The notes: generated by a model not told the origin, from the letters alone. A stretch of DNA of 64,000 nt from Candidatus Nomurabacteria bacterium (GCA_023898465.1 CP060223.1:32001-96000), one strand, 5' to 3'. Positions 15,498 through 61,002 are shown, counted from the stretch's first letter. Numbers and translations: made by a program.

Positions 15498-16487
15498 ATG
15501 AATATAATACTAGATTCGAATGTGCTGAAGGATAATTATTATCTCAATACACCGAGATTTCAAGCCCTGTTTAGCTATCTAAAAAAAACAAAATCAGAGT
15601 GTTTCATTCCTGAAATAGTAATTTTAGAAACGATAAAAAATTATAAAAGAGATACTGAAGAATACAACAGTATTGTTGATTCCCTAAAGAAGACTAATAG
15701 AGTTTTAGGTCTTAATGGTCCGAACCTTGAAATTAATATGAGCGATATTGTAAATAAGTATGAGCGAAGTATTTATAAAATAATAAAAAAAGTTGGAATA
15801 AAACTAATTCCGACTAAAGACTTGTCAATTTCAATTGATTCAGTTATTTCTCGATCGTTAAATGATATCCCGCCATTTTATAGATCAGGTAGATCAAGTG
15901 ATGTAGGATTTCGAGACTATATAGTTTGGGAGACTGTAAAATTTGTTAATAAAGACTTCGAAGGTAATCTGTGCTTTATATCGAACGATAAAAAAGCATT
16001 CGGACAAAGTTGTGAGTTATTTAGTAGATTAAAAAATGAATCCAACGTTCACTTTTATAACCTATTGGATGAGTTTTTAAATGAATATGCAGAAAAAATT
16101 AATTTTATTAGTGAAGAATACTTGGAGGACTACTTTCGTGAAGTTTTAGAAGATGAAATCCCTAATGTGGTGACTCTTAGCGAGCTACTAGCGACGAAAC
16201 CTGAGAATGAATATATAGATCCTTCTGACATAACTGACTATGAGTTTGATGAAATATCTATTTTGGATTTTTACGTTTATAATGCGACAACAAAATACTA
16301 TTACGTTTTCGTAAGGACAGACTTAATAGTAAGAGCTTATTATCTAAATAGATTAATGCTAGCGGCCGGACTTGATGATGAAGTATCTTCCGATTATTCT
16401 TTTTTAAGGTTCAAGAAATCCTTTTTACTAAGAATTGATAGAAGAACTAAAAGACCAGATCGTTTTCAAAATCATACTAGCAATTAA
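15498..16487 (+). CDS. PIN-like domain protein, 329 aa, in an AT-rich island
   Basis: N-terminus MNIILDSNVL...FIPEIVILET fits a PIN-type acidic core. The remainder is unrecognised. Composition is strongly AT-rich and K/N/I/Y-rich relative to its neighbours. Confidence 0.5.
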   Translation: MNIILDSNVLKDNYYLNTPRFQALFSYLKKTKSECFIPEIVILETIKNYKRDTEEYNSIVDSLKKTNRVLGLNGPNLEINMSDIVNKYERSIYKIIKKVGIKLIPTKDLSISIDSVISRSLNDIPPFYRSGRSSDVGFRDYIVWETVKFVNKDFEGNLCFISNDKKAFGQSCELFSRLKNESNVHFYNLLDEFLNEYAEKINFISEEYLEDYFREVLEDEIPNVVTLSELLATKPENEYIDPSDITDYEFDEISILDFYVYNATTKYYYVFVRTDLIVRAYYLNRLMLAAGLDDEVSSDYSFLRFKKSFLLRIDRRTKRPDRFQNHTSN

Positions 16488-16744: not shown

Positions 16745-16820
16745 GGTGGCTATAGCACAGTGGTTAGTGCACCGGGTTGTGGTCCCGGTGACATGGGTTC
16801 GAATCCCATTAGCCACCCCA
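16745..16820 (+). tRNA. tRNA-His (anticodon GUG) with encoded G-1 and CCA
   Basis: G-GUGGCUA-UA-GCAC-AGUGGUUA-GUGC-A-CCGGG-UUGUGGU-CCCGG-UGAC-AUGGG-UUCGAAU-CCCAU-UAGCCAC-C-CCA. Confidence 0.85.
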
Positions 16821-16845: not shown

Positions 16846-17799
16846 TTATTCGTCTTCGTCTTTTTCATCCCTCCGCCGGCCATGAAAGGCTTTGTACACT
16901 TCACGTAGCTGCGCATTAGTAACGTGGGTGTATATTTGCGTGGTCGTAATAGAGGAGTGGCCGAGCAATTCCTGCACAGAGCGAATATCAGCACCATTCA
17001 TTAGCAGGTCAGTAGCAAAGCTGTGCCGCAGGGTATGCGGTGTAATCTTTTTCGTAATCCCGGCAATCGCGGCGTAGCGCTGCACCATCCGTTGGATAGA
17101 GCGGGGCGTAAGTGGACTGACTTCCTCGCCTTGTATCTCATCACTTTTTCCAGCAGCTCGATCATGTCGGACAAACAGCGCATCGTTGCCGTCGCGCCGC
17201 ATCTGCAGGTAGTGTCGGATCGCCTGCTTCGCTTGTTCAGAAATAAATACCAGTCGGACTTTGCCGCCTTTACCCTTGACCGAGAATTCATCCTTTTCCA
17301 GGTTGAGACTGTTGCGCTGCAGTTTCGCTAACTCGGAAATACGTAATCCCGTTGAGAAGAGTGTTTCGAGAATTGCTCGGTCGCGTTGCTTCACGATGTC
17401 GCTGCTTGGACTTTTATATGGAGCTTGCAAGAGTTGCTCCAAATCCTCTGAATCAAGGAAGTTGACAGAGCGCTGCGACTGTTTCATTAGCTCAATTTTT
17501 TCTGGAGCTAGTGAAGCAATATCGTGTCGCGATAGATATTTCAAAAATGAACGCAGGGCAATGAGGTGGTAGTTTTGCGTTGAGGCTTTAAGAGTTTCAC
17601 TATCTTTACCGAGCAGGCGATTCAACTTCAAACGAAAAGAGCGCACATTCGCCTCGGTAATATCCTTAGGAGTTTTTACTCCGCTCAGCTCAAAAAAGCG
17701 CGTGAGATAAAAATCATAATTGCGGACAGTGAGTTGACTCCGTCCACGCTCGATTTCGAGATACTCAAGAAATTCAGTTTTTAGCTTTTGCAGATCCAC
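16846..17799 (-). CDS. tyrosine site-specific recombinase, XerC/XerD family
   Basis: 317 aa with an N-terminal SAM-like domain (LEYLEIERGRSQLTVRNY) and a C-terminal catalytic domain (HTLRHSFATDLLMNGADIRSVQELLGHSSITTTQIYTHV). Confidence 0.85.
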   Translation of the reverse strand: MDLQKLKTEFLEYLEIERGRSQLTVRNYDFYLTRFFELSGVKTPKDITEANVRSFRLKLNRLLGKDSETLKASTQNYHLIALRSFLKYLSRHDIASLAPEKIELMKQSQRSVNFLDSEDLEQLLQAPYKSPSSDIVKQRDRAILETLFSTGLRISELAKLQRNSLNLEKDEFSVKGKGGKVRLVFISEQAKQAIRHYLQMRRDGNDALFVRHDRAAGKSDEIQGEEVSPLTPRSIQRMVQRYAAIAGITKKITPHTLRHSFATDLLMNGADIRSVQELLGHSSITTTQIYTHVTNAQLREVYKAFHGRRRDEKDEDE

Positions 17800-17933: not shown

Positions 17934-18893
17934 TTATAGTGGTGGTATATACACCCGGTGCAGCTCTTCGTTGCCCTCGAGATTTTGCTGATGCTCAGCT
18001 TCCCGAATCGCCAGGGCAATTTGTCGGACAATGATGTGGAGGAGGATCTGGTTATTGTAGTTGAAGTCGCGCTTGCCTTCTTTATCACCCAGCAGGATAG
18101 CACCAACAACCTCGCCACCAGTGCGGACTTTCACTCCCAGCATAGAAGCGGAGCTATAGGCTGTTTCTAGGTTTGGCTTGGCTTTAAAAACCTCATGTGT
18201 GATAAAGATGTCGCGCTGGGTGCGGTGAATTTCACCGAGAATCGGATCATCGCGCAAGGAGAGTTTTAGAGATTCGATATCCTGATTTTTCTCATAGCCG
18301 ATCGCTTTTTCTATCACGATGCGATTTTCCATTGGGCGATACCAAGCAAAGAGGGCTTTTTTCGCACGAATCGTTTCAGTGATAGTTTGCAATAGAGCTT
18401 CAATCAGATTATCAAGATTGGAGTAGCTGGTAGCAATTTTACCTGTCGCATACACGGTGACAAGTTTATTATTCGCGTGATGCAAGCGATCAGTCAGGTT
18501 GCCCATGATATTGCCAAAGAGCACATTGGCGATGGCGGGTTCCTGTTGCCTGAACTTTTGGAAATCCTTACCAGAAATCACGAGCAGCTGCGCGTCCTCG
18601 GTTACCTCAGCCAGGTGGTGGTGCTCTACATCAGGATTGATCAGGGCGCTCTCTACTAAAAAGGTGTGTGCGCCAAGTAAGGCCAAGGTTTGTACCTCAT
18701 CTTTAAAGGTGCGGTAAATATGCACCTGCCCAGAAAGCACGATAATGAATTCTTTACGCTTATCACCGTTCTCAAACAAGAGTGTCCCACGCTTTGCTTC
18801 TCGCATTTGCGTGATGGCCGCGATTTTTCCTAGGGCTTCATCACTAAGTCCCTGGAAAACGGGGATAGGTTTGAGAATAGAGAGCTCAGGCAT
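17934..18893 (-). CDS. cyclic-nucleotide-binding (CAP-like) domain plus GAF domain protein
   Basis: N-terminus FQGLSDEALGKIAAI...LLFENGDKRKEFIIVLSGQVHIY is a cNMP-binding beta-barrel. The C-terminal half is GAF-like. No DNA-binding HTH was seen. Confidence 0.65.
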   Translation of the reverse strand: MPELSILKPIPVFQGLSDEALGKIAAITQMREAKRGTLLFENGDKRKEFIIVLSGQVHIYRTFKDEVQTLALLGAHTFLVESALINPDVEHHHLAEVTEDAQLLVISGKDFQKFRQQEPAIANVLFGNIMGNLTDRLHHANNKLVTVYATGKIATSYSNLDNLIEALLQTITETIRAKKALFAWYRPMENRIVIEKAIGYEKNQDIESLKLSLRDDPILGEIHRTQRDIFITHEVFKAKPNLETAYSSASMLGVKVRTGGEVVGAILLGDKEGKRDFNYNNQILLHIIVRQIALAIREAEHQQNLEGNEELHRVYIPPL

Positions 18894-18895
18894 GG

Positions 18896-19945
18896 TTAAT
18901 CGAGGAATTCAGGGTTGGCCATGTGTGCCACCGCGACTTCCCGGGAGATTAATTCGTTTTGATACATTTGTTTGAGCGATTGATCCATGGTCATCATGCC
19001 CTCCTCTGAGCTGGTCTGAATCGCTGTCTTAATCTGGTGTACCTTATTTTCTCGGATCAGGTTAGCAATAGCCGGAGTGTTGATGAGCACTTCACGAGCA
19101 GCCACACGACCGCCGCCGTTTTTCGGCAAAAGCAGCTGGGAAATAATCCCGCGCAAGAAAAGCGAGAGCTGCAAACGTACCTGCGCCTGCTGATACGGCG
19201 GGAAGACGTCAATAATACGATCGATCGATTGGGCTGCATTTAAGGTGTGCAGCGTGGCAAAAACCAAGTGACCGGTTTCGGCTAAGGTAATGGTAGAGGC
19301 GATAGTTTCTAAGTCGCGCATTTCTCCAACCAGAATGATGTTCGGATCCTGACGGAGGACGTGCTTCAAACCTTCACCAAAGCTCAACATGTCAGAGCCA
19401 AGCTGACGTTGTCGGATGACACTCTTCTTCGGTGTGTACAGGAACTCAATCGGATCTTCCAGTGTAATAATGTTCGCGTTTCGCTTAGAGTTGAGCAGCT
19501 CTATCATAGCGGCCAGGGAAGTGGACTTACCACAACCAGTTGGACCGGTAACGAGGATTAAGCCTTGATTAAGGTCAAGTAAATCATAAACCACCGGAGG
19601 CATGAGGAGCTCCTCCATAGCTGGTATGTTGGTTGAAATAACACGAGACACGAGACCCGGGTAAGTTTTTTCCCAAAGCATGTTTACACGGAAACGTGAA
19701 ACATCTTTTATCTCATAGGAAATATCCAGCTCGCGTTTGCTTTCGTATATCTTGCGCTGGCTCTCATTTAATATGCTGAAGCACAAGGTTTTCACTTGCT
19801 CAGGCGTCAGAACTGGCTTATCAGGCACACGCTGCAAAACTCCATCAATACGGACGATGGGCGGGAGGTTGGCGATTAAGTGAATGTCAGAGGCTTTGTG
19901 TTTGACTGCGTAGAGAAAAATTTCGTCGATGGATAGGCTAGGCAT
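18896..19945 (-). CDS. pilT: type IV pilus retraction ATPase PilT
   Basis: GLILVTGPTGCGKSTSLAAMI (Walker A), LVGEMRDLETI and His box TLHT. 349 aa. Confidence 0.9.
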   Translation of the reverse strand: MPSLSIDEIFLYAVKHKASDIHLIANLPPIVRIDGVLQRVPDKPVLTPEQVKTLCFSILNESQRKIYESKRELDISYEIKDVSRFRVNMLWEKTYPGLVSRVISTNIPAMEELLMPPVVYDLLDLNQGLILVTGPTGCGKSTSLAAMIELLNSKRNANIITLEDPIEFLYTPKKSVIRQRQLGSDMLSFGEGLKHVLRQDPNIILVGEMRDLETIASTITLAETGHLVFATLHTLNAAQSIDRIIDVFPPYQQAQVRLQLSLFLRGIISQLLLPKNGGGRVAAREVLINTPAIANLIRENKVHQIKTAIQTSSEEGMMTMDQSLKQMYQNELISREVAVAHMANPEFLD

Positions 19946-20150
19946 TTTCTTTTGTTAGACAAGCATGGGTAAGTACTCCTTATAGTAGCAGGAATGAGAG
20001 AAATTCGAAATATGAAGCTCGAAATGCAAAACAAATTCGAATGAGAAAAATACCAATGAGATAAACAGGCAGGTTTTGAGCCTTGAAATATTCGCGTTTT
20101 ATATGTGCTTAGGACTTAGCGCTTAGGGTTTCGTGTTTTTCTCTGTGGTC

Positions 20151-20185
20151 TTGACAATTTTAACAATTTGTGCTATTATCCCGCG
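20151..20185 (+). promoter_or_regulatory. sigma70-like promoter TTGACA-17-TATTAT for the 20335-23757 operon
   Basis: The sequence reads ttgacaattttaacaatttgtgctattat. Confidence 0.5.
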
Positions 20186-20334
20186 TTACGTTGCCAGAAA
20201 TGGCGGTCGTAGCACGATCATTGACAAGTGAATAGTCAGTTGATCGTCACAATAGTGAGGCAGCTTTTAGGCTGTTCTCTTGTGAATGGTCGTAAGCGTT
20301 CGAAAAAGCAGGTCTTAGACCTGGGGAGGATGCA

Positions 20335-20919
20335 ATGGCTGATATCACCGGCTTCTTGGAAAAGATTGCCGGGGCGATAATTGGAGCCAAAGATGAAAAA
20401 GGTGCCGACCAAAAGCCAGCCACGAAAAAGAAGGGTTGGCTTGAGGACGTCGCAGAGATCGAGATGGACAGGGTTTTGCCTGCCATTGCGAGGTCTATTT
20501 TTCGTCTGACCGGCGGCCGAGGTAAGGAGTTTATCGCTCTACTCACGAGCGATCCGGCTAAGTTGGTCTGGGCTCGACTCACCCCTGATCATTGGAAGTA
20601 CTCGAACCTGATCGACAATGCTCGAAATCGTCTGGCTGTTGAACTTTCCAAACTATCGACTGGAGAGGCCTCGCTCGATGATGACGAAGTAGGTCTAAGT
20701 CTGGCAGAGATCGATTGGTCCGTCGCCGACTTCGAGACACTACTTGAGGTGAGCATTGCTCGAGCCGAGTTTGAGTTGGAGTATCCCGAAATGATACCCG
20801 CCTATGATAGGTTTGTGGCAAATCTCCTGAAAGGGAATGGCGCAAAGAAGAAAGAGGGCGGTAAGGATACGAGGGGCAGCAAAGGCAAGCAGTCAGGAGG
20901 TAAAGATGGTGGAAAGTAG
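20335..20919 (+). CDS. hypothetical soluble protein (194 aa, Lys/Gly-rich tail); gene 1 of a GC-rich four-gene operon
   Basis: SD ggggagga upstream of the ATG. No recognisable domain. Its stop overlaps the next gene's start. Confidence 0.6.
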   Translation: MADITGFLEKIAGAIIGAKDEKGADQKPATKKKGWLEDVAEIEMDRVLPAIARSIFRLTGGRGKEFIALLTSDPAKLVWARLTPDHWKYSNLIDNARNRLAVELSKLSTGEASLDDDEVGLSLAEIDWSVADFETLLEVSIARAEFELEYPEMIPAYDRFVANLLKGNGAKKKEGGKDTRGSKGKQSGGKDGGK

Positions 20920-21445
20920 CAACCCCAAGAAGGGCCTCCTCGATCGCTTCCTGAAAGGGACGCCAGACGAGAAGGCCACCGTGCTGCGAAGTGTCGGCAT
21001 GGGTACTGGAAGTGGAGGAGCCACGGCAAAACGTGACTTCAACGCGCTTTTGTATCGCAGTTCTCAGATCACGGATCAGATGCGTGAAGCGTATGCGGAG
21101 TTTCGACGTGGTCTCAGCATCGAACAACTGGAAGCAGTCCGGCGTATTGAGGCGACGTTGAATGATGTCGGTTCAGTACGTTCATGGCTTGAGTTGAATG
21201 ATGACCAGCGTATCGAGGTGGCTGAGAACTACAGCACCACTACCGTGCCTCAGCAAGAGGTAGCCGATGCAGTTCGTGGAGCTGCCGGGGCGCTTCAACG
21301 GGGTACTGCCTCGATGGCGGGTTTTCGTGAACGCCACCGTGCTGGTCTGGAAGAGAAGAAGCAGAAGTGGCAAGAAGAAGATGAAGCAAGAGCGCGTCGG
21401 CGAGAAGCTGTGCGCGGCTGGCTTCGAAATCCTTTCCGGCGATAG
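20906..21445 (+). CDS. hypothetical soluble protein (179 aa, Arg/Glu-rich C-terminus); gene 2
   Basis: SD aggagg 8 nt upstream of ATGGTGGAAAG, overlapping the upstream stop. The 20837 start is rejected because it overlaps gene 1 extensively. Confidence 0.55.
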   Translation: MVESSNPKKGLLDRFLKGTPDEKATVLRSVGMGTGSGGATAKRDFNALLYRSSQITDQMREAYAEFRRGLSIEQLEAVRRIEATLNDVGSVRSWLELNDDQRIEVAENYSTTTVPQQEVADAVRGAAGALQRGTASMAGFRERHRAGLEEKKQKWQEEDEARARRREAVRGWLRNPFRR

Positions 21446-21460
21446 TCAACGAAGGAGGTC

Positions 21461-22813
21461 ATGATGTGGGAACGGATCAAGCGTTTCTTCGCCGGCGAGG
21501 TGGAGGACGCGCTAGGTGAGCTTGGTGGCGAAAGTGTGAATGTCATCACAGCGTTCCTGGAAACGGTCTGGTGCGTAGCCTCGGTCTTTTACCAGACTGA
21601 GGTCAGAGTGTTGAAGCGTGGGCTTCCTTGGTTGATTGTTTGGTTGACCACTTGGGCCATGACGACAATAGTAGCCTGGGTTTGCAACAACTTCTTTTGG
21701 CACCGACCTTGGTTGTCGTCAGTAATTGGTCTTGCCTCGACTCTCTTCGCCTTATTCGTCTTTATCTATGGAGGGAGAATTCTCTTCATATTAGCGGTGG
21801 CGAAGGGGATCACGACCATGAGGCTCTCGAGGTGGAAGCCCTGGGAGATAAATGTGCTCATGGAAGATCTCCGTCGGGGCATGGATGGAACGCTCGACGG
21901 GTATTTCTACTTTCTCCGGATTCTGAGTTGGGTGGCAATTGGTGAGCTCTTGTTCTTCATCTATGGGAACATCTTCCCAATGTGGAACAATTACGCCGTG
22001 ATGCCGCTTTTCTTTTCCACCCTTCTTGTGTTCATACTTCTGTCGAAGAAGCTGAGCACGGGCGCGGAGAAGGCGGCTCGGATGCAGCAGGTGCAGCAGG
22101 TGATGCTCGTCATCGCCGTTCTGTGTTCGGGGAGCTTCCTGGCGCCGGGACCTTTCCAGCGCTTTGGAGCAATGCTCACGAGCCTACAGACCAAGGCAGC
22201 CTCTGACACCTGGTTCCCAGTGTCGGCGCTCTTGATCGTCTTCATCACTCTTGCGGTGTACGGCAGCAAGTCCTTGCTCAAGTACACGCAGTGGTTGATG
22301 ATCGGCTTGGCGTCGTCGTACATCGGCTACGTGGCCATCTCCGCAGTCTGGATCAAGCACAACACTCCGCTCGTGCCGACGGTTTTCCTAGGTACGGTCG
22401 CTCTGGTGCTGGTGCTGGCGGCAATCGGACTCACGATGCCGAAGTCGACTGACGGGTCCGGTAAGCGGATGGCTCTTGGTGTTGGTCTGGCTGGATTGAC
22501 TTGCGCCTGCCTCCTCCTCTTCTACGGGGGGAGTCAGGACGGACAGTATCTGGATCCGGTCTCGGGTGCCGCGAAGGTTTTCGTGGCAACTGATCCGGTG
22601 ACAGAGACCCAGATCGGCGTTCGCGGACCAAAGGCGGCGACGTACACGGTTGATCCCGAGTACGGACAGCCCTTCGTTGCCTGGACCTCTCTCACCAGAG
22701 AGGAGCAGGACAAGTTCCGCAAGAACCCGAAGTGGATCGATGAGGTCAAGCTGGAAGGCTTGGGTCTCACGAACAGTAACGCGACCTACACACTGAAAGG
22801 AGGCACACCGTAA
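21461..22813 (+). CDS. hypothetical polytopic membrane protein (about 8-10 TM helices plus C-terminal soluble domain); gene 3
   Basis: Multiple 20-aa hydrophobic stretches. SD aggagg upstream of the ATG. Confidence 0.6.
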   Translation: MMWERIKRFFAGEVEDALGELGGESVNVITAFLETVWCVASVFYQTEVRVLKRGLPWLIVWLTTWAMTTIVAWVCNNFFWHRPWLSSVIGLASTLFALFVFIYGGRILFILAVAKGITTMRLSRWKPWEINVLMEDLRRGMDGTLDGYFYFLRILSWVAIGELLFFIYGNIFPMWNNYAVMPLFFSTLLVFILLSKKLSTGAEKAARMQQVQQVMLVIAVLCSGSFLAPGPFQRFGAMLTSLQTKAASDTWFPVSALLIVFITLAVYGSKSLLKYTQWLMIGLASSYIGYVAISAVWIKHNTPLVPTVFLGTVALVLVLAAIGLTMPKSTDGSGKRMALGVGLAGLTCACLLLFYGGSQDGQYLDPVSGAAKVFVATDPVTETQIGVRGPKAATYTVDPEYGQPFVAWTSLTREEQDKFRKNPKWIDEVKLEGLGLTNSNATYTLKGGTP

Positions 22814-23757
22814 TGGTGTCGATCCTCGATATCTATGTGCTTTTCGCCGTCTTCATGCTGGTGTTTCTCAACTTCCGGCGTGGAGACTGGACGCGGGGTA
22901 TCGCAGCGGTGATCTTCGGCGCTTTGGGTGTCGGCTTCCTCGTCGGGATGATCAAGTCTTTCCCGCTGCAAGTGGGAATGCTGGAGCCTCCGCTTCGCAC
23001 CTGGTCGACTGCAGGCACGGTGGAAATCGTGTTCCGCCTGGCGATCACGTTCGGCCTGATCTATTGGCTTGTGTACATGATCAGGGTAAAGAAGTGGACG
23101 CTGCGACCTGTTGTCTTGGGGATTGCGGTCCTCATGGCACTGGGCTTCGATACTGGCATGATGCTGCGACCGTACTATACGGACAGTCTCGCGCCGGTCG
23201 TCGAGGTAGCAGCAGCTGATTCACTCGAAACGAACTACGAGTCCTTGACTCTGGTCGCACGTGCGAATCAGCGAGAGAATCGGGTGCGTTCGGTTCAGAA
23301 GGGCGATCTCGTCATCTGCCGCTTCGTAGGAGAGCCTGACAAGTTCTGCTACCGAGCGCTCAAGAGCACTCCGTACTATCGGGGCGCTCGAGAGGTGCAG
23401 TTGGTCGGCTCCTATCAGGATCCTACCCAGCACTCGGTTCGTGACTACATCAACGCGACGGACTACAGCTTCCTGCTTCCGCCGTCGCGCATCAGCGCTC
23501 GACGAATCCCCACCAGCCTCAACTTCATCGGTGTCTGCGGCTATGCCCCGGCACCTCTGCAAGATGAGGTGGCAAGCTTCGTGGTACGGGAGTCAGGGGA
23601 TTTGTACATCGGGTATAACACCCGAGCCTACAATATGCCTTTGACTCGCTTCGCTACCTTCAACTTCGGCTACTGGCACGCACCCATGAATCCTCCTACG
23701 GTGAATGGGGAACGTGTCTTTCAGGTCACGGTCATTCCTGCTGGAGAGTGGGGATGA
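22813..23757 (+). CDS. hypothetical membrane protein (4 N-terminal TM helices plus about 180-aa C-terminal domain); gene 4
   Basis: ATG overlaps the gene-3 stop (gtaATGg). Ends at a strong terminator. Confidence 0.6.
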   Translation: MVSILDIYVLFAVFMLVFLNFRRGDWTRGIAAVIFGALGVGFLVGMIKSFPLQVGMLEPPLRTWSTAGTVEIVFRLAITFGLIYWLVYMIRVKKWTLRPVVLGIAVLMALGFDTGMMLRPYYTDSLAPVVEVAAADSLETNYESLTLVARANQRENRVRSVQKGDLVICRFVGEPDKFCYRALKSTPYYRGAREVQLVGSYQDPTQHSVRDYINATDYSFLLPPSRISARRIPTSLNFIGVCGYAPAPLQDEVASFVVRESGDLYIGYNTRAYNMPLTRFATFNFGYWHAPMNPPTVNGERVFQVTVIPAGEWG

Positions 23758-23810
23758 TCACAATGTTCTTTTACCTTCAACCGCCTGGGCGTGGAAGCCC
23801 TGGCTATCAA

Positions 23811-23862
23811 AGGCCCTGTCTCGAATAAACAACGAGAGACAGGGTCTTTTTCTTTTTGTAAG
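23811..23862 (+). terminator. rho-independent terminator
   Basis: ccctgtctcgaataaacaacgagagacaggg forms a hairpin followed by tctttttcttttt. Confidence 0.5.
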
Positions 23863-23902
23863 CACACCAAGGCTGGGATGCCTTGGCTAGTTGTTATTAC
23901 CT

Positions 23903-23930
23903 TGAAATTCAGGCCATTTTTTGCTATACT
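23903..23930 (+). promoter_or_regulatory. promoter TTGAAA-16-TATACT
   Basis: ttgaaattcaggccattttttgctatact lies just upstream of the 23940 ATG. Confidence 0.45.
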
Positions 23931-23939
23931 GCACCTACC

Positions 23940-26900
23940 ATGCGATTTCATTTAGCTTCACGCATCCTCATCGGAGCGCTTCTCGTGCTTACTGGAGCGC
24001 TATTTTCGCATACCGTGTTTGCTGCATATGGTGATGTGACGAGTTTTACCAGCAAAGTGTATGCAGGAGATGGCGGACAAGCAGCTAATGCATGGTTAGA
24101 TTTTCCGGAAGATATTAATTTTGATGCTGATGGCAACCTTTACGTTGCTGATACAGAGAATTTTGTTATTCGAAAAATAGACACGAACGGCGTGATCAGC
24201 ACCTACGCCGGATCTGGCCATTATGGTTTTTACAATGCGCCTGGGAATGCTGCTCAATTTGCTTCGCCAAAAGGACTTGCCATTGATAGCTCAGGGAATA
24301 TCTACGTGGCGGACACGGATAACAACATGATTCGCAAGATTGATCGTTATCGTGGCATCTCCACTGTGTTATCAGACAATTTGAACGCTCCCGAAGGTAT
24401 CACAGTATATGGTAGCTATCTCTACATTGCCGATACTGGGAATAACGCAGTAAAAAAACTCAATCTTGGTAACGGACGAGTTGATATTCTTAGTTCTGAT
24501 GTTTCTCATCCACGTAAGTTAGTAGTAAATACTGATGGGAGCTTAGTCTATGTCACTGACTCGGGAAATAATCGAGTAGTTTCAGTGAATACCAGCACCG
24601 GATTAACCTCATTGATTGCTGGAAGCTCAGAAGGGTATCGAGAGGGTGTGGGAAGTGCGGCAAAGTTTTCTAATCTCGCAGGAATTGCCTTTGACGGCAC
24701 CTATATATATGTGGGCGATGGATCAGGGCATGATAATCGCATTCGCAAAATCCACATTGGCACGAGACAGACAAGCTTGGTGGCTGATGATCCTCGTTTG
24801 CAAGTATTTAGCACTCCTTTTGGCATCCGGATTCGAAACGGGAAAATCTACGGCGCCAGCACCGGAAATAGCACCATCCAATCCTTTACTGCTTCAAACG
24901 GCGAACACTATGCGCGCATCGCCGGAATTGATCGCTTTGGTTATCGTAACGGGTCAATCACTGAAGCGCTTTTTGGTCGACCAAATGATGTGGTTATGAA
25001 CGCGGCTCGGACAAAAATGTATGTAGCTGAGAATAATAAGATTCGTGAAATTAACCTCGAAACCAGTCAGGTTCGATTAGTAGCGGGTAACTCGATTGAT
25101 GATTACGTAGGCGAGGGACAAAGCGGATCCGCAGCTCGCTTCAGCACTATTACTGCCATGGCAATCAATAGTGATGGAGATACGCTCTATGTGGTTGATC
25201 ACTGGAATAATCGCATTCGCGCAGTCGACGTTGCCACGGGCACTACGTCTTTAATTGCTGGAGGAGGAGAGTACAATACGAGTGGCTCAGGCAATGGTTA
25301 TGCAGAGGGAAGTGGAGAAAGTGCTCGTTTTGATAATCCTTTTGGTATTGCTATTTCGCCTGACGATACCACCTTATATATCACTGATGTAGCAAATCGT
25401 CGTATTCGTAAAGTGGTTATTTCGACTGGCGCCACCTCTCTTGTTGCTGGCTCAGGTGCAAATACTTCAAGTGATGGCTCAGGTGCTGCCGCGTCATTTA
25501 TGTATCCGGCTGGCATTACTATCGATACCGCAGGTGAAAATCTCTATGTAGCAGATCGCGATGCGCATACTTTGCGTAAGATTCGCTTGTCCGATGCTAT
25601 GGTCACCACGATCGTTGGTACGGCCGGTCGACAAGGTTATCGTGATGGCATTGGTGCAAATGCTGTCCTTTCTTATCCGCTGTATGTGAAGTGGGGCAGT
25701 GATAATCGCCTTTATTTCTCCGAAGCAGGATCGCTTCGACTTCGCTTAGTAGAAGTGAGTGACATGTTAACTAAATTGGTAGCTGGTAGCGGAAATCGTG
25801 GCTATCACGATAGCACACGGACTGATGCAAAATTCAATAATATCGCTGGATTTGCTGTTGATATTCCTTCACATACGCTTTTTGCTGCTGATAATCGTAA
25901 TGATTTAATTCGACGTATTAGTATTGCCGGTTCGCCGCCTTACTCTGATCCACAACCAGTTGTACAAGGTGTGCGACCAAGTCCGATAAAAGATCAAACA
26001 GATGCGTCAGCCGTAGCCTATCTCGATGTTTTGGGCGCGAACTTCCTGCATGGCGCCGAAACAAAGTTTGGTGATTTTCGCACTACTACCTATGTAAAGA
26101 GTGATTCGCAGCTTACCGTAGTTATCCCGATCGGTTTGATGGAGCCGGGACACTACGATGTCTCAGTGACAAATCTTGATGGCCAGGTTGATATCCTTAC
26201 CAATGGCTTTGGTCTCTCTGATGCGAATGGAAATGTGCCGGAGCGCTTCTTCCCCATTTTGGAGCAAGGTGGCTTCTATGCCTATGCGCCAAACTTCCCA
26301 GGAGGAGTAAATCTGAGTTCCGGCGATGTGAATAATGACGGTCGTGATGAAATAATTACCGCCCCGGCATCTCTCGGTGGACCACATGTTCGTTACTTTA
26401 CCAAAGATGGCTCTGTGGTCGGTCAGCTCTTTGCCTATGCGCCGAGTTATCGCGGGGGAGTGAGTGTTGCCTCTTGCGACATTGATGGTGATGGTAAGGA
26501 CGACATCGTGACGGGTACGGATGGAGCGAAGGCGCCGCATGTACGTATCTTGCGAGCCGACGGTTCATTAATTAACCAATTCTTTGCCTACCCGCAGGCT
26601 TTCCGGATCGGTGTGACAGTAGCCTGTGGTGATGTGACTGGTGACGGTAATCCGGAAATTGTAGTGAGTCCGCAAGCACGCGGTGGTCCACACGTCCGCG
26701 TCTTTACTCCAAATGGCCAATTAGTTTCTCAATTCTTTGCCTACCCGGCACATTTTCGCTTAGGTCTCGACTTAGCTCTCGGCGACACTGACGGGGACGG
26801 TACAAAAGAAATTATTGTCGCACCGTTGACCAATGGCGGTCCACATGTTCGCCGTTTTAATGCGCAGGGTCAACTCCTCGGTCAATTCTTTGCCTACGGT

Positions 26901-27185
26901 GCAAATCTGAGAACTGGAATCACTATTGAAGCTGGCGATACCGATGGTGATGGTCGGGATGAAATTGTGACTGGCACTGAGAATGGCGCAGCGCCTCACA
27001 TTCGTATCTTTGATGGTAATGGATCTGTTGAAGGACAGTTCTATGGATTTGCTTCGCGCCTCCGCAATGGTGTACACATTGGGGTAGGTGATTACGACGG
27101 TGATGGTGTTGCCGATATTGCCGCAAGCTTGGCGCGTGGTCTTTCCACAGTGCATGTCTACGATAGCAACGGCAACGATTTGTAA
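23940..27185 (+). CDS. secreted NHL-repeat beta-propeller plus FG-GAP/VCBS-repeat beta-propeller protein (about 1080 aa)
   Basis: Signal peptide MRFHLASRILIGALLVLTGALFSHTVFA. Repeated NHL-type units of the form G.LYVAD..N..IRKI. Seven C-terminal repeats of GD.DGDG..EI......GGPHVR.F plus FAY match the FG-GAP/integrin-alpha pattern. Confidence 0.8.
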   Translation: MRFHLASRILIGALLVLTGALFSHTVFAAYGDVTSFTSKVYAGDGGQAANAWLDFPEDINFDADGNLYVADTENFVIRKIDTNGVISTYAGSGHYGFYNAPGNAAQFASPKGLAIDSSGNIYVADTDNNMIRKIDRYRGISTVLSDNLNAPEGITVYGSYLYIADTGNNAVKKLNLGNGRVDILSSDVSHPRKLVVNTDGSLVYVTDSGNNRVVSVNTSTGLTSLIAGSSEGYREGVGSAAKFSNLAGIAFDGTYIYVGDGSGHDNRIRKIHIGTRQTSLVADDPRLQVFSTPFGIRIRNGKIYGASTGNSTIQSFTASNGEHYARIAGIDRFGYRNGSITEALFGRPNDVVMNAARTKMYVAENNKIREINLETSQVRLVAGNSIDDYVGEGQSGSAARFSTITAMAINSDGDTLYVVDHWNNRIRAVDVATGTTSLIAGGGEYNTSGSGNGYAEGSGESARFDNPFGIAISPDDTTLYITDVANRRIRKVVISTGATSLVAGSGANTSSDGSGAAASFMYPAGITIDTAGENLYVADRDAHTLRKIRLSDAMVTTIVGTAGRQGYRDGIGANAVLSYPLYVKWGSDNRLYFSEAGSLRLRLVEVSDMLTKLVAGSGNRGYHDSTRTDAKFNNIAGFAVDIPSHTLFAADNRNDLIRRISIAGSPPYSDPQPVVQGVRPSPIKDQTDASAVAYLDVLGANFLHGAETKFGDFRTTTYVKSDSQLTVVIPIGLMEPGHYDVSVTNLDGQVDILTNGFGLSDANGNVPERFFPILEQGGFYAYAPNFPGGVNLSSGDVNNDGRDEIITAPASLGGPHVRYFTKDGSVVGQLFAYAPSYRGGVSVASCDIDGDGKDDIVTGTDGAKAPHVRILRADGSLINQFFAYPQAFRIGVTVACGDVTGDGNPEIVVSPQARGGPHVRVFTPNGQLVSQFFAYPAHFRLGLDLALGDTDGDGTKEIIVAPLTNGGPHVRRFNAQGQLLGQFFAYGANLRTGITIEAGDTDGDGRDEIVTGTENGAAPHIRIFDGNGSVEGQFYGFASRLRNGVHIGVGDYDGDGVADIAASLARGLSTVHVYDSNGNDL

Positions 27186-35854: not shown

Positions 35855-37282
35855 CGAGATAAGATAGGGTAAAAATCCTTTTTGGGTTTGAAAAAACTCA
35901 GAGTGTTTTGTTGTTGACGAAATGATGAAAATATATCAAAATAAAACGGTAGTTTAACTTTTCTTTACTGAAAGAAAAAGGGGGATTTGGCTTGAAGATT
36001 AGCCAAGGAAAGAAAAAACAGGACTGGAAGGCTAGAAAAAAGAGAAAGTCAGGAAGATTCAGCCTTTTCAGTAATTTTTTTCAGAAAAATCGACGTCGTC
36101 AGACTAAACTGGAGCAACCCCACAGCTTAAAGCCTGGGGCTGTTTTATTGCAGCTTTTTAGACAGACGCGACGTTACCGGGCTCAACAGCTTGTCTCTAT
36201 TAGTCTGGCAATTGTTTTGCTCTTGGCTTTTGGTTTTCAAATGTTTGTTGTAGCGGCGCCACCTGAAACTGCTTTTACGACGGTAAGCTCCGATGCTGAA
36301 TGGAATATGGGCACGCTTGAAGATGTCACTGTGAATAGTGGCAGCATTGAAATTTCTGGAGACGGGGGAGCTGGCTGGTTGAGTGGATGGCAAAATAGGC
36401 AGCCGGTCACAATTACCAATACCGGTTCAGCGCAGACAAACTATCAAGTAAGAGTTGATGTTACCTATGATGCCAAAATGCAGGCGGATTTTGATGATTT
36501 ACGTTTTGCAAAAGCTGATGGCACTGAGCTGGACTTTTGGCTGCAATCTAAAGTTGATTCTACCTCAGCCGTTGTTTGGGTGGAGGTGGATTCTTTGGCT
36601 GGATCGGGCGATACGGTGATCTACATGTATTACAATAATTCTGGCGCTTCGAGTACATCGGACGGAGCGGCGACTTTTCCTCTCTTTGATGATTTCAATG
36701 ATGCAAGTATAGACACGGGTAAATGGGTAGAAGTTGATCCCAGCTCAAAAATTGATGAATCAGCCGGATCGCTCCGTTTCCTTTACGGGTCTGGTAGTGG
36801 AGCATGGAATGCAAGTGTGTATGGCGTCACTTCTTTTACGCGGGCGGATTGGAGTTTTGAGTGGGATCAAACTTGGATTAGCGATTATAATCCATATGAC
36901 GCCTTCATGTTTGGCTGGAAAGATGATGGCGGAGCGGTAAGTTACACAAATCTCGTGTATGGCTACTACAATAGTGGGTCGGGTTTTTGTACAACGAACT
37001 GTACAGGGAATGTGTATGAAGATGGGAATAGTCGGGGAAATGCTGGAGTATGGGACAAAGATGTAACGTATAATCTGCGGGTTCGCATGCGAAGTGCTGG
37101 CGGAGCTTACTATGAAAAGAGTACAAACAATGGGGGATCATGGACAACCGATTATACAAGCACCTATTCAACTGAGGCTTCTCTTCATCCAGCCTGGATG
37201 CATTACGCAGGTGATTATTTGATTGATAATGTGCGGGTACGTAAATGGATGGCAAGCGAGCCAAGTCTTGTCTTTGGCACCG

Positions 37283-39380
37283 AAGAATCCGCCCTCCAAT
37301 CACCTGGGACCTACACCTCCCACAACCTTGATCTCCAGTATATCTACCAATGGGGAGACTGTGCCTCTGGCTGTAATGACTCTTCCACTGCCTTCACTAC
37401 CAACATCACGGTTCCCAGTAACACCTCAGTCCAGTTTGAACTCCGCCATTCAGCTGACGGCTCCACCAACTGGTCATCATGGACATCCCTGGCTACCTAC
37501 ACTACCTCTGGTACCAAAACGCTCACCCGAGGAGACCTAGTGGGTCTCATTGGTGATATCTTCAATCGTTATGTCCAAACTCGGATTACGCTGACCTCCT
37601 CAGATGGGAGTAGTAATCCTTCCATCGCTGACTACCGCTACGACTACACCAGAGAAACTGATCCGCCCAGTAATCCCAACACGCAGAATGGCTATGCCTC
37701 GAATGGAGGAGCAGCCATTACTTCAGGTAATTGGTACAACCATCCAGCTCCCTACTTCACCTGGAGTGGCGCCAGTGACACTGATGCTGGTATGTCCGGA
37801 GGCTACTCCGGCTACTGGGTCTGCTTTGGCACCTCATCCTGTGAACCTACCTCTGGTACCTTTGTGTCTTCCGCTGCCTACACGGCTGGGAGTCTCACTA
37901 CCAATACGACCTACTACCTCCGCATCAAAGCGAGAGATGCTGCCGGCAATGTGGCCACCTCAGCCTACGATGCCTTTACCTACAAATACGACGCCACCCC
38001 ACCAGCCAATCCCTCTGGTATCCTGCCTGATCCGGCTGGCTTTACCAATGTGAATGACTTTGACTTCACCTGGAATACCGGCTCCGATGCGGGTGGCTCT
38101 GGTATTGCTGAATACTGCTACAAGACCGGAGAAGATGGCTATGTCGAAACCTGTACCGCCTCCACCTCAGTCACGGGTATTACTGCCTACCAAGAAGGAG
38201 CCAATATCTTTTACGTGAGAAGTAAAGATATCGCTGGCAACCTCCCCACCTTCTACACCCAGGTCTCTTACTACTACTCTGCCAATGCGCCTTCACCACC
38301 GCAAGGACTCGAGGTGGACCCCACAGAGAACACGGCCAACTCCTTTACCTTTACCTGGCTACTTCCCGCCTCCTACTCCAATCCGATTGCCACCTACCAT
38401 TACTCGGTAAATGCCTTACCCACGGCAAGTAACACGACCGCAACGACCAACCTCAGTGTCGGTCCTGGTGCCTTTGCCACCCAACAAGGCACGAACATCT
38501 TCTATGTCGTCGCCAAAGACACCGCTGGCAACGTGGAATGGGACTCCTACGCTGCAGTTGAGTTCACCGCCAATACCACTGCTCCAGGTATTCCAACTGG
38601 TGTGACCCTGACAGACTCATCCATTCGGGCCCAGAACAAGTATTCCCTCACCCTCACCTGGGATGCTCCAGAGAACGAAGGCTCAGGTATTGATCACTAC
38701 GTCATTGACCGCTCAACCACTATCGGCTGCAGTGATGGTTCAGGTACCTGGGTCCAGCATGCCACCACCACCGCTGAAGGCTACTTTGATCCGAATCTTT
38801 CCAATACCACGACCTACTGCTACCGCGTGAAGGCAGCCGACAATGCCGGAGCCCAATCCGCCACCTCCTCTATTGTCTCCATGCGTCCAGAAGGCCGCTT
38901 CACTGAACCTCCAGAACTCATTGGCTCCCCAGGGGTTGAAGCCTACATCCAGTCGGCGACCGTCGAGTGGCTGACTGATCGCGAAGGCAGCTCCTTTGTG
39001 GAGTTTGGCACGTCCTCAGATACTCTTGATCGTGTCATGGGCCAAGACGACTTTGTGACCAGTCACAGTGTCACCCTCCTCGACCTTGATCCGGCTACTA
39101 CCTACTACTATCGTACGAAATACACTGACCAAGACAGTAATACCGGCTATTCTTCAGTCCTCTCCTTTACCACTGCTGATGCACCGTCAGCTCCGACCAA
39201 CCTCAGTGTGGACCCAGAGAGTAATACCCGAAACTCCTTTACCTTTGCCTGGGATCCCCCCAGTGATGCTGGAGTCACTATTCAAGGCTACTTCTACAGT
39301 GTGAATGATGTCCCCACCAGTACGAATACCTCCTTCACTGCTCAGCAAGAGCTTGGCCCTGGCGCATATGCCACGAGACA
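37283..39380 (+). repeat. about 2-kb shared stalk module, copy in P2
   Basis: Near-identical at the nucleotide level to 42287-43969 (P3) and 47464-49410 (P4). From 37990 it also matches 53300-54700 (P5). Encodes ESALQSPGTYTSHNLDLQYIYQWGDCASGCND... through ...APSAPTNLSVDPESNTRNSFTFAWDPPSDAG. Confidence 0.85.
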
Positions 39381-40311
39381 AGGGAGAACGTCTTCTACCT
39401 TGTCGCTATTGATGAAGGAACAATGTGAACTACGACAACTATGCTGCAGTCGCTTTCACTGCCACGACCCCCGCTCCTGCCATCCCCACCGGCCTCATCA
39501 TTACCGATGCCTCGAACCGAGAAACTGAAGACTACTCTATTGCCTTGAAGTGGAAAGCAGTGACCACTGAACAAGCCGGTAGCCTGGAAGATGACGCGGT
39601 GACCTACGAGATTCTCCGTTCCACTGATGGAGACAGCTTCTCCACCGTGGCCAACATTACCTCGACTGGCTACCTGGACGTCGATCTCGACAATACGACG
39701 GAGTATTACTACCAAGTGAAAGCCAAAGACTCCGCCGGCGCTGCTTCAGCTCCTTCGACCACCGTCTCAGATATCCCTGAGGGGAGATATACCACTCCAC
39801 CGGAGATTACCAAAGCCCCCCACGTTACTCCTTCCAGCTTCTCAGCCAAGGTAGAGTGGAGTACTGGACGGCCAACTACCTCCTTTGTTCAATTTGGCAC
39901 TAACCCCGCCTCATTAACAGAAGAGCAGGGTACTTCAAACCTTATCGCTGACCACGAGGTAACCATTGAGGGTTTGCAGCCTGAAACTACGTATTCATAT
40001 AGAGTAAAAAGTGTTGATGTGGATGGAAACATTTCACATTCAAGTGTTGCTACATTTACCACCCAGGCTGCTCCACGTGTTTCAAATGTAGGCATCAGCG
40101 ACGTACGTTTATTTGATGCTCTCATTAGCTGGGAAACAAATAAAGCGACCACAACTTCACTTGAGTATGGCACCACCACGAACTATGGTACAACGGTGAG
40201 CGATGCAACAGGATCAACTACCACATCTCATTTATATAAGTTAGAGAATTTGCAAGATGACACGCTCTACCATCTTCGTTTCCGTGGCGTTGATGCAGAA
40301 GGGACGCAAGT

Positions 40312-40999
40312 TAGTTCCGACGACTACACCTTCACCACCCTGACTTTCCCCCGGGTCGAGAACATCACCTGGGCTAATCAAGCCGAAGGCGAGACCGAAG
40401 TGCAATGGACTACGAATGTCCCCACCACCTCCCAAGTGGAATATTACAACGAAACTACTCCAGCCAAGACCCAAGGTAATACGGTCCTGACCACGGAACA
40501 CTCCGTCCTCCTCTTTGGCCTCGACGATGCCACCATTTACCAATTCCAAGTCCGAGGCACTGACCAATTTGGCTACGAAGCCATCTCAGATGAGCAAGAG
40601 TTCCGTACCCTGGAAGATACTACCCCTCCAGTCGTGAGTAATGTGCAGGTAGAGTCCAATACCATTGGCTCAGGTGAGCTCTCTCGTGTGCAGATCATTG
40701 TCCGCTGGACCACCAATGAGCCTACCTCTTCTCAAGTCCGCTTTGGTGAAGGAAATAACCTTTCCTCTGAATCAGATGTGAACCCAGAGTTAGTCTATGA
40801 TCACCTCCTTGTCGTCTCAGACCTAGAACCAGCGAGAACCTACAATATTCAAGCTATTGCCGTCGACAAAGCAGGGAATAGTACTGACTCTGATACCTAC
40901 CGAGTGCTTACCACCCGTCGGAGAGATTCCTTCCTCCAACTGGTCATTGGCAACCTGGAAGACACCTTTGCCTGGTTTACTAATATTGGAGGACTCTGA
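40312..40999 (+). repeat. about 0.7-kb conserved C-terminal module (TLTFPRVENITWANQAEGETEVQWTTN...RRRDSFLQLVIGNLEDTFAWFTNIGGL), copy 1 of 4
   Basis: Near-identical DNA at 45306-45998, 50505-51180 and 55635-56318. The P1 version (35195-35854) is conserved only at protein level. Confidence 0.85.
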
Positions 41000-42245
41000 T
41001 GGCACGGACGATGAAACATTGGCATAGAGGTGCAAAGAAGCGACCAGCTCATCCAGCAACACGTACGAGCTATCGTCGAAAATATCGCCAGCAAGTAGGT
41101 ATCTCGATTGCGGTGTTTTCACTTTTCCTACTCACTATCTCGTCATTTATCCAGGCAGCCGCACCAGAAGCCACCTACGTTGAAGTAACTTCAGACGCGG
41201 ACTGGAACATGGGCACCTTGAGCGATGTTACGGTGAATAGTGGGAGTATTGAAATCTCTGGAGATGGGGGAGCAAACTGGATAGCAGAATCAGGATGGCA
41301 ATTGCGGCAAAAGATTACCTTTGATGCTTCTACGCTCACGACATCTCTGAGTTATTTTCCCATCATGGTGCATATTGATAATACAAATACGGATTTTTGG
41401 GCAGGAGCGGCAAGTCGTGACGAAGTACGCTTCGGTGATAGCGATGGTGCCGTTTTAGATTTTCATTTTGAAAAATTTGATCATACTGCCGATGATGCCA
41501 TTGCCTGGGTTGAAGTGCCAACGCTAACTAATGATTCTTCTGATCACATATATCTCTATTATGGACACGCTTCACCAGCTAACGGTGAAGATGAAGCGGG
41601 CACCTATGATAATGACGGAAATTTTGTTGGCGTTTGGCACATGGCAGAGACAAGTGGTACGTCATATGATTCTACAAGTAATAACGTTGACCTCACTCCT
41701 CGCAATGCACCAACCCAAGATGAAACTGGCAAGGTAAATGGAGGAGATGGCTTCACAGGAAACGGCGACGCGCTCCATAATCAAACGTCAAGTATCGTAT
41801 TTGGAAATAGTATTACTCTAGAAGGTTGGTTTAAGCGAACCGGATCCGGTACTGGGTCCGGAAGAATTTTAGAATTTTCCCTGGATGGCGACGCTGATAG
41901 CCACGCCTTAGCCGTCGATTCAGACGGTTCACTTCGAGCCTGGGTGCAATGTACGACTGGTCGAGTTGGCAGCGCTGATGATCCTACTGTATATGGTACA
42001 GGAACTTGGTATTACTTCGCTTACACCTATGACGGATCGATTGGTCGACTTTATGTGAATGGTGTTCAGAAAAAAACTGCAAGTGGATCTTGTGCAAATT
42101 TAGATGATGCAGGGGACACTATTCTTGGAGCAATTTCTGACCAGAGCGGTGCTTACTCCCTGCCGCAACATGAATTTGATGGATATTTAGATGAACATCG
42201 TGCTTCTGATGTAGCTCGATCAGCTGATTGGATTAAAGCTGCTTA

Positions 42246-45305: not shown

Positions 45306-45998
45306 TTACTTTTGTCCGACGACTACACCTTCACCACCCTGACCTTCCCCCGGGTCGAGAACATCACCTGGGCTAATCAAGCCGAAGGCGAGACCGAAGT
45401 GCAATGGACTACGAATGTCCCCACCACCTCCCAAGTGGAATATTACAACGAAACGACTCCAGCCAAGACCCAAGGTAATACGGTCCTGACCACGGAACAC
45501 TCCGTCCTCTCCTCTTTGGCCTCGACGATGCCACCATTTACCAATTCAAGTCCGAGGTACTGACCAATTTGGCTACGAAGCCATCTCAGATGAGCAAGAG
45601 TTCCGTACCCTGGAAGATACTACCCCTCAGTCGTGAGTAATGTGCAGGTAGAGTCCAATACCATTGGCTCAGGTGAGCTCTCTCGTGTGCAGATCATTGT
45701 CCGCTGGACCACCAATGAGCCTACCTCTTCCCAAGTCCGCTTTGGTGAAGGAAATAGCCTTTCCTCTGAATCAGATGTGAACCCAGAGTTAGTCTATGAT
45801 CACCTCCTTGTCGTCTCAGACCTAGAACCAGCGAGAACCTACAATATTCAGGCTATTGCCGTTGACAAAGCAGGGAATAGTACTGACTCTGATACCTACC
45901 GAGTGCTTACCACCCGTCGGAGAGATTCCTTCCTCCAACTGGTCATTGGCAACCTGGAAGACACCTTTGCCTGGTTTACCAATATTGGGGGGTTGTAG
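45306..45998 (+). repeat. conserved C-terminal module, copy 2 (carries indels)
   Basis: tccgtcctctcctctttgg has 2 extra nt relative to the other copies. caattcaagtcc and tacccctcagtcgtg each lack one C. Confidence 0.8.
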
Positions 45999-60957: not shown

Positions 60958-61002
60958 TCAAGCACACTGTTCATTCACGTCCCGCCTCAAGTGAGGATCA
61001 CT

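Follow-up and report, generated by a model that had tools for sequence, protein, structure and literature searches.

Between a pilT gene and a run of giant surface-protein genes, a Candidatus Nomurabacteria genome of 1.08 Mb (Candidate Phyla Radiation, abbreviated CPR and also called Patescibacteria) carries a compact operon of four genes preceded by a structured leader RNA, and no part of this unit resembles anything in current protein, structure, defense or RNA libraries. The window analyzed is a stretch of 64,000 nt (GCA_023898465.1 CP060223.1:32001-96000), called W where it is compared with related loci, and positions are counted from its first nucleotide. The four products, P1 to P4, are deposited as hypothetical proteins USN53600-USN53603, with open reading frame (ORF) calls that coincide with ours. 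"New" is used here of sequence and family space; the biological role is something we infer. The operon is made up as follows:

20151-20179, plus strand: sigma-70-type promoter with extended -10 (TTGACA-17-TGcTATTAT; 11 of 12 consensus positions plus the TG)
20185-20334, plus strand: structured 5' leader RNA of about 150 nt, with hairpin H1 on the 5' side (about 20185-20213), the long helix H2 (20214-20293) and hairpin H3 (20296-20333), the last abutting the ribosome-binding site (RBS)
20218-20234, plus strand: invariant 17-nt box TC[AG][CT]TGACAAG[CT]GAATA that makes up the 5' arm of H2; all 8 loci have it
20335-20919, plus strand: P1, 194 aa, soluble, with a Lys/Gly-rich C-terminal tail (ORF and RBS)
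20906-21445, plus strand: P2, 179 aa, soluble, Arg/Glu-rich (ATG at 20906, coupled to P1)
21461-22813, plus strand: P3, 450 aa, polytopic membrane protein (ORF, hydropathy, family alignment)
22813-23757, plus strand: P4, 314 aa, four transmembrane (TM) helices and a C-terminal domain (ORF)
23809-23857, plus strand: intrinsic terminator of the operon (14-bp stem at 23809-23849, then TCTTTTTCTTTTT)

A single transcription unit runs from the promoter through the structured leader and the four coupled genes to the terminator. A Shine-Dalgarno sequence stands ahead of all four genes: P1 and P2 overlap by 14 nt, with AGGAGG 6 nt ahead of the P2 ATG; P2 and P3 are separated by a 15-nt gap that holds GGAGG; and P3 and P4 meet in an overlapping stop/start, TAATG. 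The terminator hairpin folds at -23.4 kcal/mol (z = -5.5) and was overlooked by the automatic scan because its loop is long. The promoter pattern, CTTGACAAA...TGnTAnnnT, is kept in the eight related loci examined. An initial annotation of the window, made from the sequence alone, had already placed the promoter, the four-gene coupling and the terminator where we find them, and its descriptions of the proteins (the tail of P1, the Arg/Glu content of P2, the TM count of P3, the four TM helices and Cys-containing domain of P4) were correct as well.

That annotation had also called the unit a candidate novel system, and this is well supported, as searches of profile libraries, Protein Data Bank (PDB) sequences and large protein databases tied none of the products to a family already described. 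None of P1-P4 matched Pfam at E <= 1, and Pfam scans of individual P4, P1P2 and P3 family members gave nothing better than E = 0.012; NCBIfam returned nothing for P1-P4 but noise at E of about 0.2, and PHROGs a single noise match (E = 0.26). The search of defense-system profiles that had been proposed as a check gave 0 matches in PADLOC-DB v2 at E <= 1, both for P1-P4 and for seven P1P2 family members. Profile searches of PDB sequences with P3, P4 and P1P2 brought nothing significant, IMG/VR held no P3 relative, and tblastn of P4 against phages and of P3 against plasmids gave no match. An exosortase, CPBP or Wzy-like identity for P3 was dropped: by eye its invariant residues are unlike what we take to be the signature Cys/Arg/His or Glu/His sets of those families, and no model matched. 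Nor did Pfam or NCBIfam place any product in an ordinary transporter or biosynthetic family, which the annotation had named as an outcome that would speak against it; and the categories it had listed (transport or export, defense or abortive infection, prophage remnant) are each without positive evidence.

The families themselves are tiny. In a word-indexed search of 5.8 billion proteins P3 found itself and one relative (76% identity) and P4 only itself, and repeating the search with a family profile added nothing; HMMER, run in full over 1.84 billion cluster representatives, brought four more P3 relatives at 22-29% identity. Among 185,579 GTDB species representatives, one carries the family. 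A P3 peptide pattern had no match when metagenomes were scanned with it, and the P4 alignment was too divergent for building such a pattern; the 17-nt leader box, used in the same way, matched at least 120 times, mostly by chance, with L038 the sole true locus among those fetched. With the loci recovered by DNA scans, eight are available (W, L001, L004, L005, L006, L007, L008 and L038), most of them on short contigs. Relatives are contained in SRR17818317, SRR22388171, SRR12358676, SRR23493594, JGI 3300048559, Ga0265297 and GCA_043827125.1.

Within the reach of its contig, each of the eight loci shows one and the same gene order: a divergently transcribed pilT, then P1 and P2 or a fused P1P2, P3, P4 and, in the direction of the operon, a gene for an NHL/FG-GAP surface protein (found downstream in L002, L004, L006, L007 and L008). 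In the wider order a gene for a cNMP (cyclic nucleotide monophosphate)-binding/GAF protein precedes pilT and a giant surface-protein gene follows the NHL/FG-GAP gene. The two flanking genes in the window are:

18896-19945, minus strand: pilT (T2SSE retraction ATPase; Pfam T2SSE, 4.6e-42), divergent neighbor outside the operon, adjoining the unit in 8 of 8 loci
23940-27185, plus strand: NHL/FG-GAP beta-propeller surface protein with signal peptide (Pfam), with its own promoter-like site at 23902-23930

Because relatives whose pilT is only 73-85% identical to that of W keep the operon in the same place, its position must be old. We are thus dealing with orphan families that are restricted to one small CPR clade and fixed between pilT and the genes for the NHL/FG-GAP protein and giant adhesins. 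Conservation of the four-gene unit and its neighbors was a further check that the initial annotation had suggested, and the order common to the eight loci contradicts its picture of a foreign, self-contained island; what does stand of "foreign" is that the alleles of the operon, if not the operon itself, appear to have been exchanged between related lineages.

The constant proximity of pilT makes it natural to think of an accessory to the type IV pilus or to DNA uptake, a lineage-specific stand-in for a PilM/N/O/C-like platform working with PilT. The unit adjoins and diverges from pilT in every locus, a gene for a TfoX_N competence regulator lies about 5 kb upstream, and the membrane-plus-cytoplasmic complex that the genes suggest is like a pilus platform (PilC/T2SSF, PilM/N/O) in combining a polytopic protein and small membrane-anchored proteins with a cytoplasmic partner. 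Models for T2SSF, PilM, PilN and PilO gave no signal in any family member searched, however (T2SSE was found only in the neighboring pilT); from general knowledge, TM count and domain order differ from those of the platform proteins; and the unit evolves faster than any other part of the locus, which would be unusual for core components of the pilus, as these are normally well conserved. We regard such an accessory role as improbable.

How fast the unit evolves can be read from the range of identities across loci:

pilT: 73-99%
NHL/FG-GAP protein: 60-82%
P1P2: 23-60%
P3: 23-76%
P4: 24-45%

Several pairs of operon proteins from different loci are beyond BLASTP detection altogether. The divergence is unevenly distributed, as the near relatives W and L001 illustrate (pilT 99% identical at the amino acid level, synonymous divergence, dS, of about 0.27). 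Their DNA can be aligned as far as the start codon of P1 and once more from the middle of P3 on, with nothing that aligns in 20343-21922. Over P3 codons 1-150 synonymous sites are saturated (proportion of synonymous differences, pS, 0.78-0.82); over codons 251-450 dS is 0.13-0.40 and nonsynonymous divergence, dN, 0.01-0.03 (dN/dS about 0.05). To judge from these rates, an old, divergent allele has replaced the resident one and strong purifying selection is at work, rather than recent positive selection or decay. The P1 of W is moreover nearer to that of L004 (33.5%, E = 3e-30) than to that of its near neighbor L001 (24%).

A second mosaic is seen in L006, whose flanks group with L008 (pilT 92% identical to that of L008 and 83% to that of L007). 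Its P1P2 is 60% identical to that of L007 and 26% to that of L008, and the first third of its P3 likewise goes with L007 (64-74%, against 14-31% to L008); the remainder of P3 is 71-84% identical to L008 and 35-56% to L007, and P4 follows it (45% to L008, 31% to L007). The switch falls at alignment columns 180-240, the same columns as in the comparison of W with L001, which defines one further feature:

21910-22210, plus strand: recombination breakpoint zone in mid-P3, about codons 150-250 (W vs L001; L006 vs L007 and L008)

The junction coincides with a conserved P3 motif, W..IGE..F.Y..IF(P/Q).W. Taken together, the alignments point to two modules: module A, consisting of P1, P2 and the N-terminal third of P3, and module B, consisting of the C-terminal two-thirds of P3 and P4, with the membership of P4 seen in the L006 comparison only (the L001 contig stops before P4). 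The locus thus appears to have been rebuilt by homologous recombination between relatives, with the conserved leader and the mid-P3 motif as likely anchors; a search for silent donor cassettes of the operon found none within the window.

Loci in which conserved anchors flank exchangeable cassettes are familiar from O-antigen and capsule loci and from the C-terminal displacement of toxin-immunity pairs in contact-dependent inhibition (CDI) and Rhs systems. The present locus is like them in its fixed position, in its conserved flanks around an interior that is swapped for deeply divergent alleles by homologous recombination, and in its reused breakpoints and co-adapted genes that move together. 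It differs from them in having no glycosyltransferase, Wzx/Wzy, toxin or immunity domains, and in the nature of its anchors: the left one is an RNA leader and the right one lies within a membrane-protein gene.

Extreme divergence and mosaicism would also be expected of an anti-phage defense or exclusion module placed at a fixed hotspot by the pilus genes, with P1/P2 as sensor, P3/P4 as membrane effector and the exchange of alleles as the trace of an arms race. Pili are common phage receptors, and both the architecture, small soluble proteins with membrane proteins, and the lack of housekeeping homology would suit such a module. The unit, however, occupies one position in all of the eight recovered loci instead of being patchily present and absent. 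We found no nuclease, NTPase, TIR, SIR2 or protease-type domain in it, neither P1-P4 nor any P1P2 family member matched PADLOC, and the only neighboring candidate for a defense gene to be identified is a low-GC PIN gene about 4 kb upstream. A defense function is therefore in our view rather unlikely.

Base composition had been the initial annotation's other argument for a foreign origin, and it holds up in part. The GC content of the operon is 0.52-0.57, against 0.476 for the window, and this excess is mainly one of third codon positions (GC3) in P3 (0.72, z = 3.1) and P4 (0.70, z = 2.8), the highest GC3 values of 35 ORFs, with z scores reckoned against the 31 other ORFs; P1 (0.55) and P2 (0.53) are similar to pilT (0.55). 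Bulk GC is matched elsewhere, since several other 1-kb bins of the window reach 0.54-0.56, and CpG is not raised (observed/expected 0.95-1.13 in the operon and up to 1.29 in other genes). Relatives do not have the GC excess in common: L004 shows no real excess and L005 lies within a GC-rich genome. The annotation had held that homologs conserved with the same elevated GC would tell against it, and of this the conserved position is found and the shared GC excess is not. Members of the clade that are richer in GC, such as L005-L008 with a GC content of 0.56-0.585, could have supplied imported alleles to W and L001, which would be in keeping with the high GC3 that P3 and P4 have in these two.

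The same atypical GC3 might be taken as the mark of a degenerate prophage or mobile-element remnant, or of functionless, fast-decaying ORFs peculiar to the lineage, the more so as the sequences are orphans and a tRNA gene and a tyrosine recombinase gene lie about 2.5-3.5 kb upstream. We consider this very improbable. The ORFs are intact in eight loci as far as the contigs reach, with RBSs, coupling, promoter and terminator all kept; purifying selection is strong where alleles can be compared (the dN/dS of P3 codons 251-450 given above); and no PHROG, phage, plasmid or IMG/VR match was obtained. XerC/D-type recombinases, for their part, are ordinary chromosomal genes, and an ORF of recombinase size occupies the same upstream position in L008.

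The most conserved part of the unit is noncoding. Between W and L001 the leader is about 96% identical, as against about 65% for the spacer upstream of it and coding sequence downstream that cannot be aligned. Its minimum free energy is -64.9 kcal/mol (z = -7.1 vs shuffled controls), and both H1 and H2 are recovered by RNAalifold. The basal stem of H2 carries compensatory changes: it is formed by ACGAUCAUU/AAUGGUCGU in W, by UUGAUCAUU/AAUGGUCAA in L004 and by GUGGUCAU/AUGGCCAU in L007. In an alignment of seven leaders 77% of cells pair, vs 37-45% when the partners are slid; 18 pairs have changed on both sides, vs 5-10 in the slid controls, and none of 500 shuffles reaches the observed score. 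The leaders of L006, L008 and L038 retain the box and the ACAAG:CUUGU core and differ in other parts. The box itself occurs once in the window, even with two mismatches permitted; it was considered as a second promoter and dropped, as no consistent -10 follows it, by eye, in the eight loci.

On this comparative evidence the leader is a good candidate for a structured cis-regulatory RNA with a conserved, compensated secondary structure. It matches nothing described: the seven leaders had no match in Rfam 15 (4227 families), a scan of the window at gathering thresholds gave none either, and searches at permissive E returned only snoRNA noise (E >= 1.8) for 19946-20400 and nothing at E <= 1 for six related loci. 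Riboswitches and ribosomal-protein-type leaders, as collected in Rfam, are similar in lying, over some 150 nt, between promoter and RBS, in being more conserved than the genes they precede and in having compensated helices, and here the last hairpin abuts the RBS; the present leader differs from them in having no Rfam match and no visible expression platform of the terminator type. We read it as a new cis-acting RNA that doubles as the homology anchor on the left side in the exchange of cassettes.

Some gene calls around the leader probably need correction. Two minus-strand ORFs that lie antisense to the leader and P1/P2, 20247-20582 (111 aa) and 20579-21127 (182 aa), are unlikely to be genes and are taken as by-products of the conserved leader and the GC-rich coding sequence; overlap with that leader is the sole reason why the first seems conserved in L001. 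The called starts at L006 2192 (P1P2) and L008 8759 (P1) fall within the conserved leader, and in both loci a GTG a few nucleotides past GAGGAGG gives an N-terminus (MAD.../MAR...) like that of other family members. The L006 database protein, P0018, is therefore probably about 13 residues too long.

P1 and P2, neither of which has a predicted TM segment by hydropathy, are the two halves of one cytoplasmic protein, which is fused in about half of the loci. A single P1P2 protein of 326-347 aa is found in L001 (343 aa), L006 and L007, and separate genes in W, L004, L005 and L008; P1 corresponds to the N-terminal half of the fused protein, and P2 (13% Arg, 10% Glu) aligns with the C-terminal half of the 343-aa protein of L001. 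Because the two are fused in relatives, the Lys/Gly-rich tail of P1 can be understood as an inter-domain linker. A programmed frameshift joining P1 and P2 was judged unneeded, given that P2 has its own ATG and AGGAGG and that the type of junction varies among the split loci.

P3 has about 10 hydrophobic or TM segments followed by a soluble C-terminal tail of about 90 aa, and in the family alignment its conserved motif, W..IGE(L/V)..F.Y..IF(P/Q).W, lies at about residues 157-175. In L004-L008 the tail carries a Cys-rich, zinc-ribbon-like motif, (V/I)CPxxxxxF(R/G)GxK...C..HG, at alignment columns of about 445-475; because this motif is absent from W and L001, the tail domain seems to have been remodeled in the lineage of the window. 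Such a polytopic protein, with an invariant membrane-embedded Glu162 within the aromatic motif, could be the permease of a transporter or exporter peculiar to the lineage, with P4 as accessory and P1/P2 as cytoplasmic regulator or substrate, possibly exporting or anchoring the neighboring giant surface proteins. Coupling implies a fixed stoichiometry, and the unit adjoins 32 kb of secreted or anchored giants. We nonetheless hold a transport role to be unlikely, since no transporter family in Pfam, NCBIfam or the PDB matched P1-P4 (or, in Pfam and the PDB, the homologs searched there), the unit has no ATPase or other energizing subunit, and divergence down to 25% identity beside neighbors at 85% is rare for transporters.

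P4 ends in a domain of about 190 aa that contains all three of its Cys residues. Its relatives have an additional Lys-rich N-terminal TM helix, for a family TM count of 4-5, and from this helix together with positive-inside counts the C-terminal domain is predicted to lie outside the cell. It is beta-rich in the AlphaFold2 (AF2) model and probably a beta-sandwich, and a lectin-like (PA-IL) fold can be proposed tentatively. The motif at the end of the P4 family, G-E-I-x-I-x-Y-N ... N-x-N-x-x-G-x-R-x-F-x-V, resembles what we take to be the end of LecA, and hhalign of PA-IL (LecA/PllA/EclA) with P4 finds the same register, with a probability of only 0.2% and 0.4%. Homology to PA-IL was rejected on these values, together with the absence of a Pfam match and of any PA-IL chain in the PDB profile search; a Foldseek search with the P4 model likewise gave no PA-IL, only generic jelly-roll and cupin folds at E > 0.03. 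P4 also differs from the PA-IL lectins in several respects: the Asp of the LecA YND sequence, presumably the calcium- and galactose-binding residue, seems, by eye, to have given way to a hydrophobic residue (F, M, L or T) in the P4 family, the P4 of W has a long insertion in the region of the motif, and the PA-IL lectins are soluble, while the P4 domain is tethered to 4-5 TM helices.

The reading of all this that we favor, which is quite possible though short of probable, is that the products form an envelope complex that works, as a variable module of recognition or specificity, where the cell meets host cells or phages. The four products would assemble into one complex, in which P1/P2 would bind the N-terminal third of P3 from the cytoplasmic side; we infer this interaction because these parts travel together in the exchange. 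The C-terminal part of P3 and P4 would make up the membrane core, and P4 would display its beta-sandwich, possibly lectin-like, domain on the cell surface. Expression of the operon would be set in cis by the leader RNA, and the complex would act where the cell makes contact with host cells or phages, its diversity being kept by frequency-dependent selection. A role at the contact interface seems to us the likeliest because the unit is fixed in a locus of pilus retraction and adhesins and its alleles are old and shuffled; the operon lies, by all appearances, amid the contact apparatus of the cell.

Several points weigh against this proposal. With a promoter and terminator of its own, the operon could be regulated independently of pilT and the adhesins, so that its neighborhood is circumstantial evidence, and eight loci, mostly on short contigs, are a thin sample. 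The covariation test of the leader involved few sequences and a structure derived from W, which is itself among those aligned. TM counts from crude hydropathy are inconsistent among P3 homologs and do not assign the P3 tail to one side of the membrane. Structure prediction, which the initial annotation had also proposed, was run for P3 and P4: the AF2 model of P3 (from 6 sequences) had a pLDDT (predicted local distance difference test) of 47 and was left unused, and that of P4 (from 4 sequences), at 54, is of low confidence.

To our knowledge, little apart from type IV pili and giant adhesins has been established of how the ultrasmall CPR bacteria recognize and hold their hosts, and we know of almost no regulatory RNAs described in the phylum. 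The operon offers a compact candidate for host contact at the pilT-adhesin region, and its evolutionary signature (alleles of great age, shuffled modules, breakpoints used more than once) lends itself to comparison with host identity in metagenomes. CPR genomes often contain orphan operons; it is the module shuffling and the leader RNA that set this unit above an ordinary hypothetical operon. In its boldest form, which we think unlikely to hold in full, the idea would be that of an unknown kind of modular determinant of host specificity or the phage interface in episymbiotic CPR bacteria, whose cytoplasmic/N-terminal and surface modules are shuffled independently, with the leader and the intragenic motif anchoring recombination and a new class of cis-regulatory RNA in control. 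Should the unit serve in defense or transport after all, it would still found new protein families.

The surroundings of the operon contain further elements of interest. Downstream of the NHL/FG-GAP gene come a gene for a 2840-aa protein and then tandem giants with DUF2341, LamG and fn3 domains. The array at 35992-56318 consists of four paralogous DUF2341/LamG/fn3 surface-protein units of about 5.0-5.2 kb each, with 300-nt blocks that are 94-100% identical at this same spacing and a common C-terminal tail, ...RRRDSFLQLVIGNLEDTFAWFTNIGG. Three of the units are split into two ORFs (35992-39528 and 39425-40999; 40999-44268 and 44280-45563; 46424-49597 and 50245-51180), which could be due to frameshifts, phase variation, gene conversion or an assembly artifact. 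Large DUF2341 and FhaB proteins were also noted in Patescibacteria in the description of Patescibacterium danicum, where a role in adhesion or host interaction was suspected and it was noted that the annotation of DUF2341 assigns it to a type IV pilus-like system (PMC11809585).

On the other side of the operon, the cNMP-binding and GAF protein (17934-18893, minus strand) is encoded 2 nt downstream of pilT on the same strand and has no recognizable output domain; it is kept in L004 with 59% identity, and could be a cyclic-nucleotide sensor acting on PilT. Farther upstream a PIN_12-domain gene (15498-16487), with a GC content of 0.30 and a GC3 of 0.24, by far the lowest of the window, adjoins a tRNA gene (16746-16817) and the gene for a XerC/D-type tyrosine recombinase (16846-17799), and looks more foreign than the operon does.

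The sole GTDB representative with the operon, L008 (CAZWTD010000007.1), is labeled "uncultured Gammaproteobacteria," yet it has the CPR-type synteny of pilT, operon and NHL gene, and its pilT is the one that is 92% identical to that of L006, a Joint Genome Institute (JGI) metagenome contig; the bin is probably mislabeled or contaminated. Finally, the window encodes at 60991-61536 a 181-aa protein that matches the Pfam family Host_attach (baeRF family 12, "protein required for attachment to host cells") with E = 3e-8.

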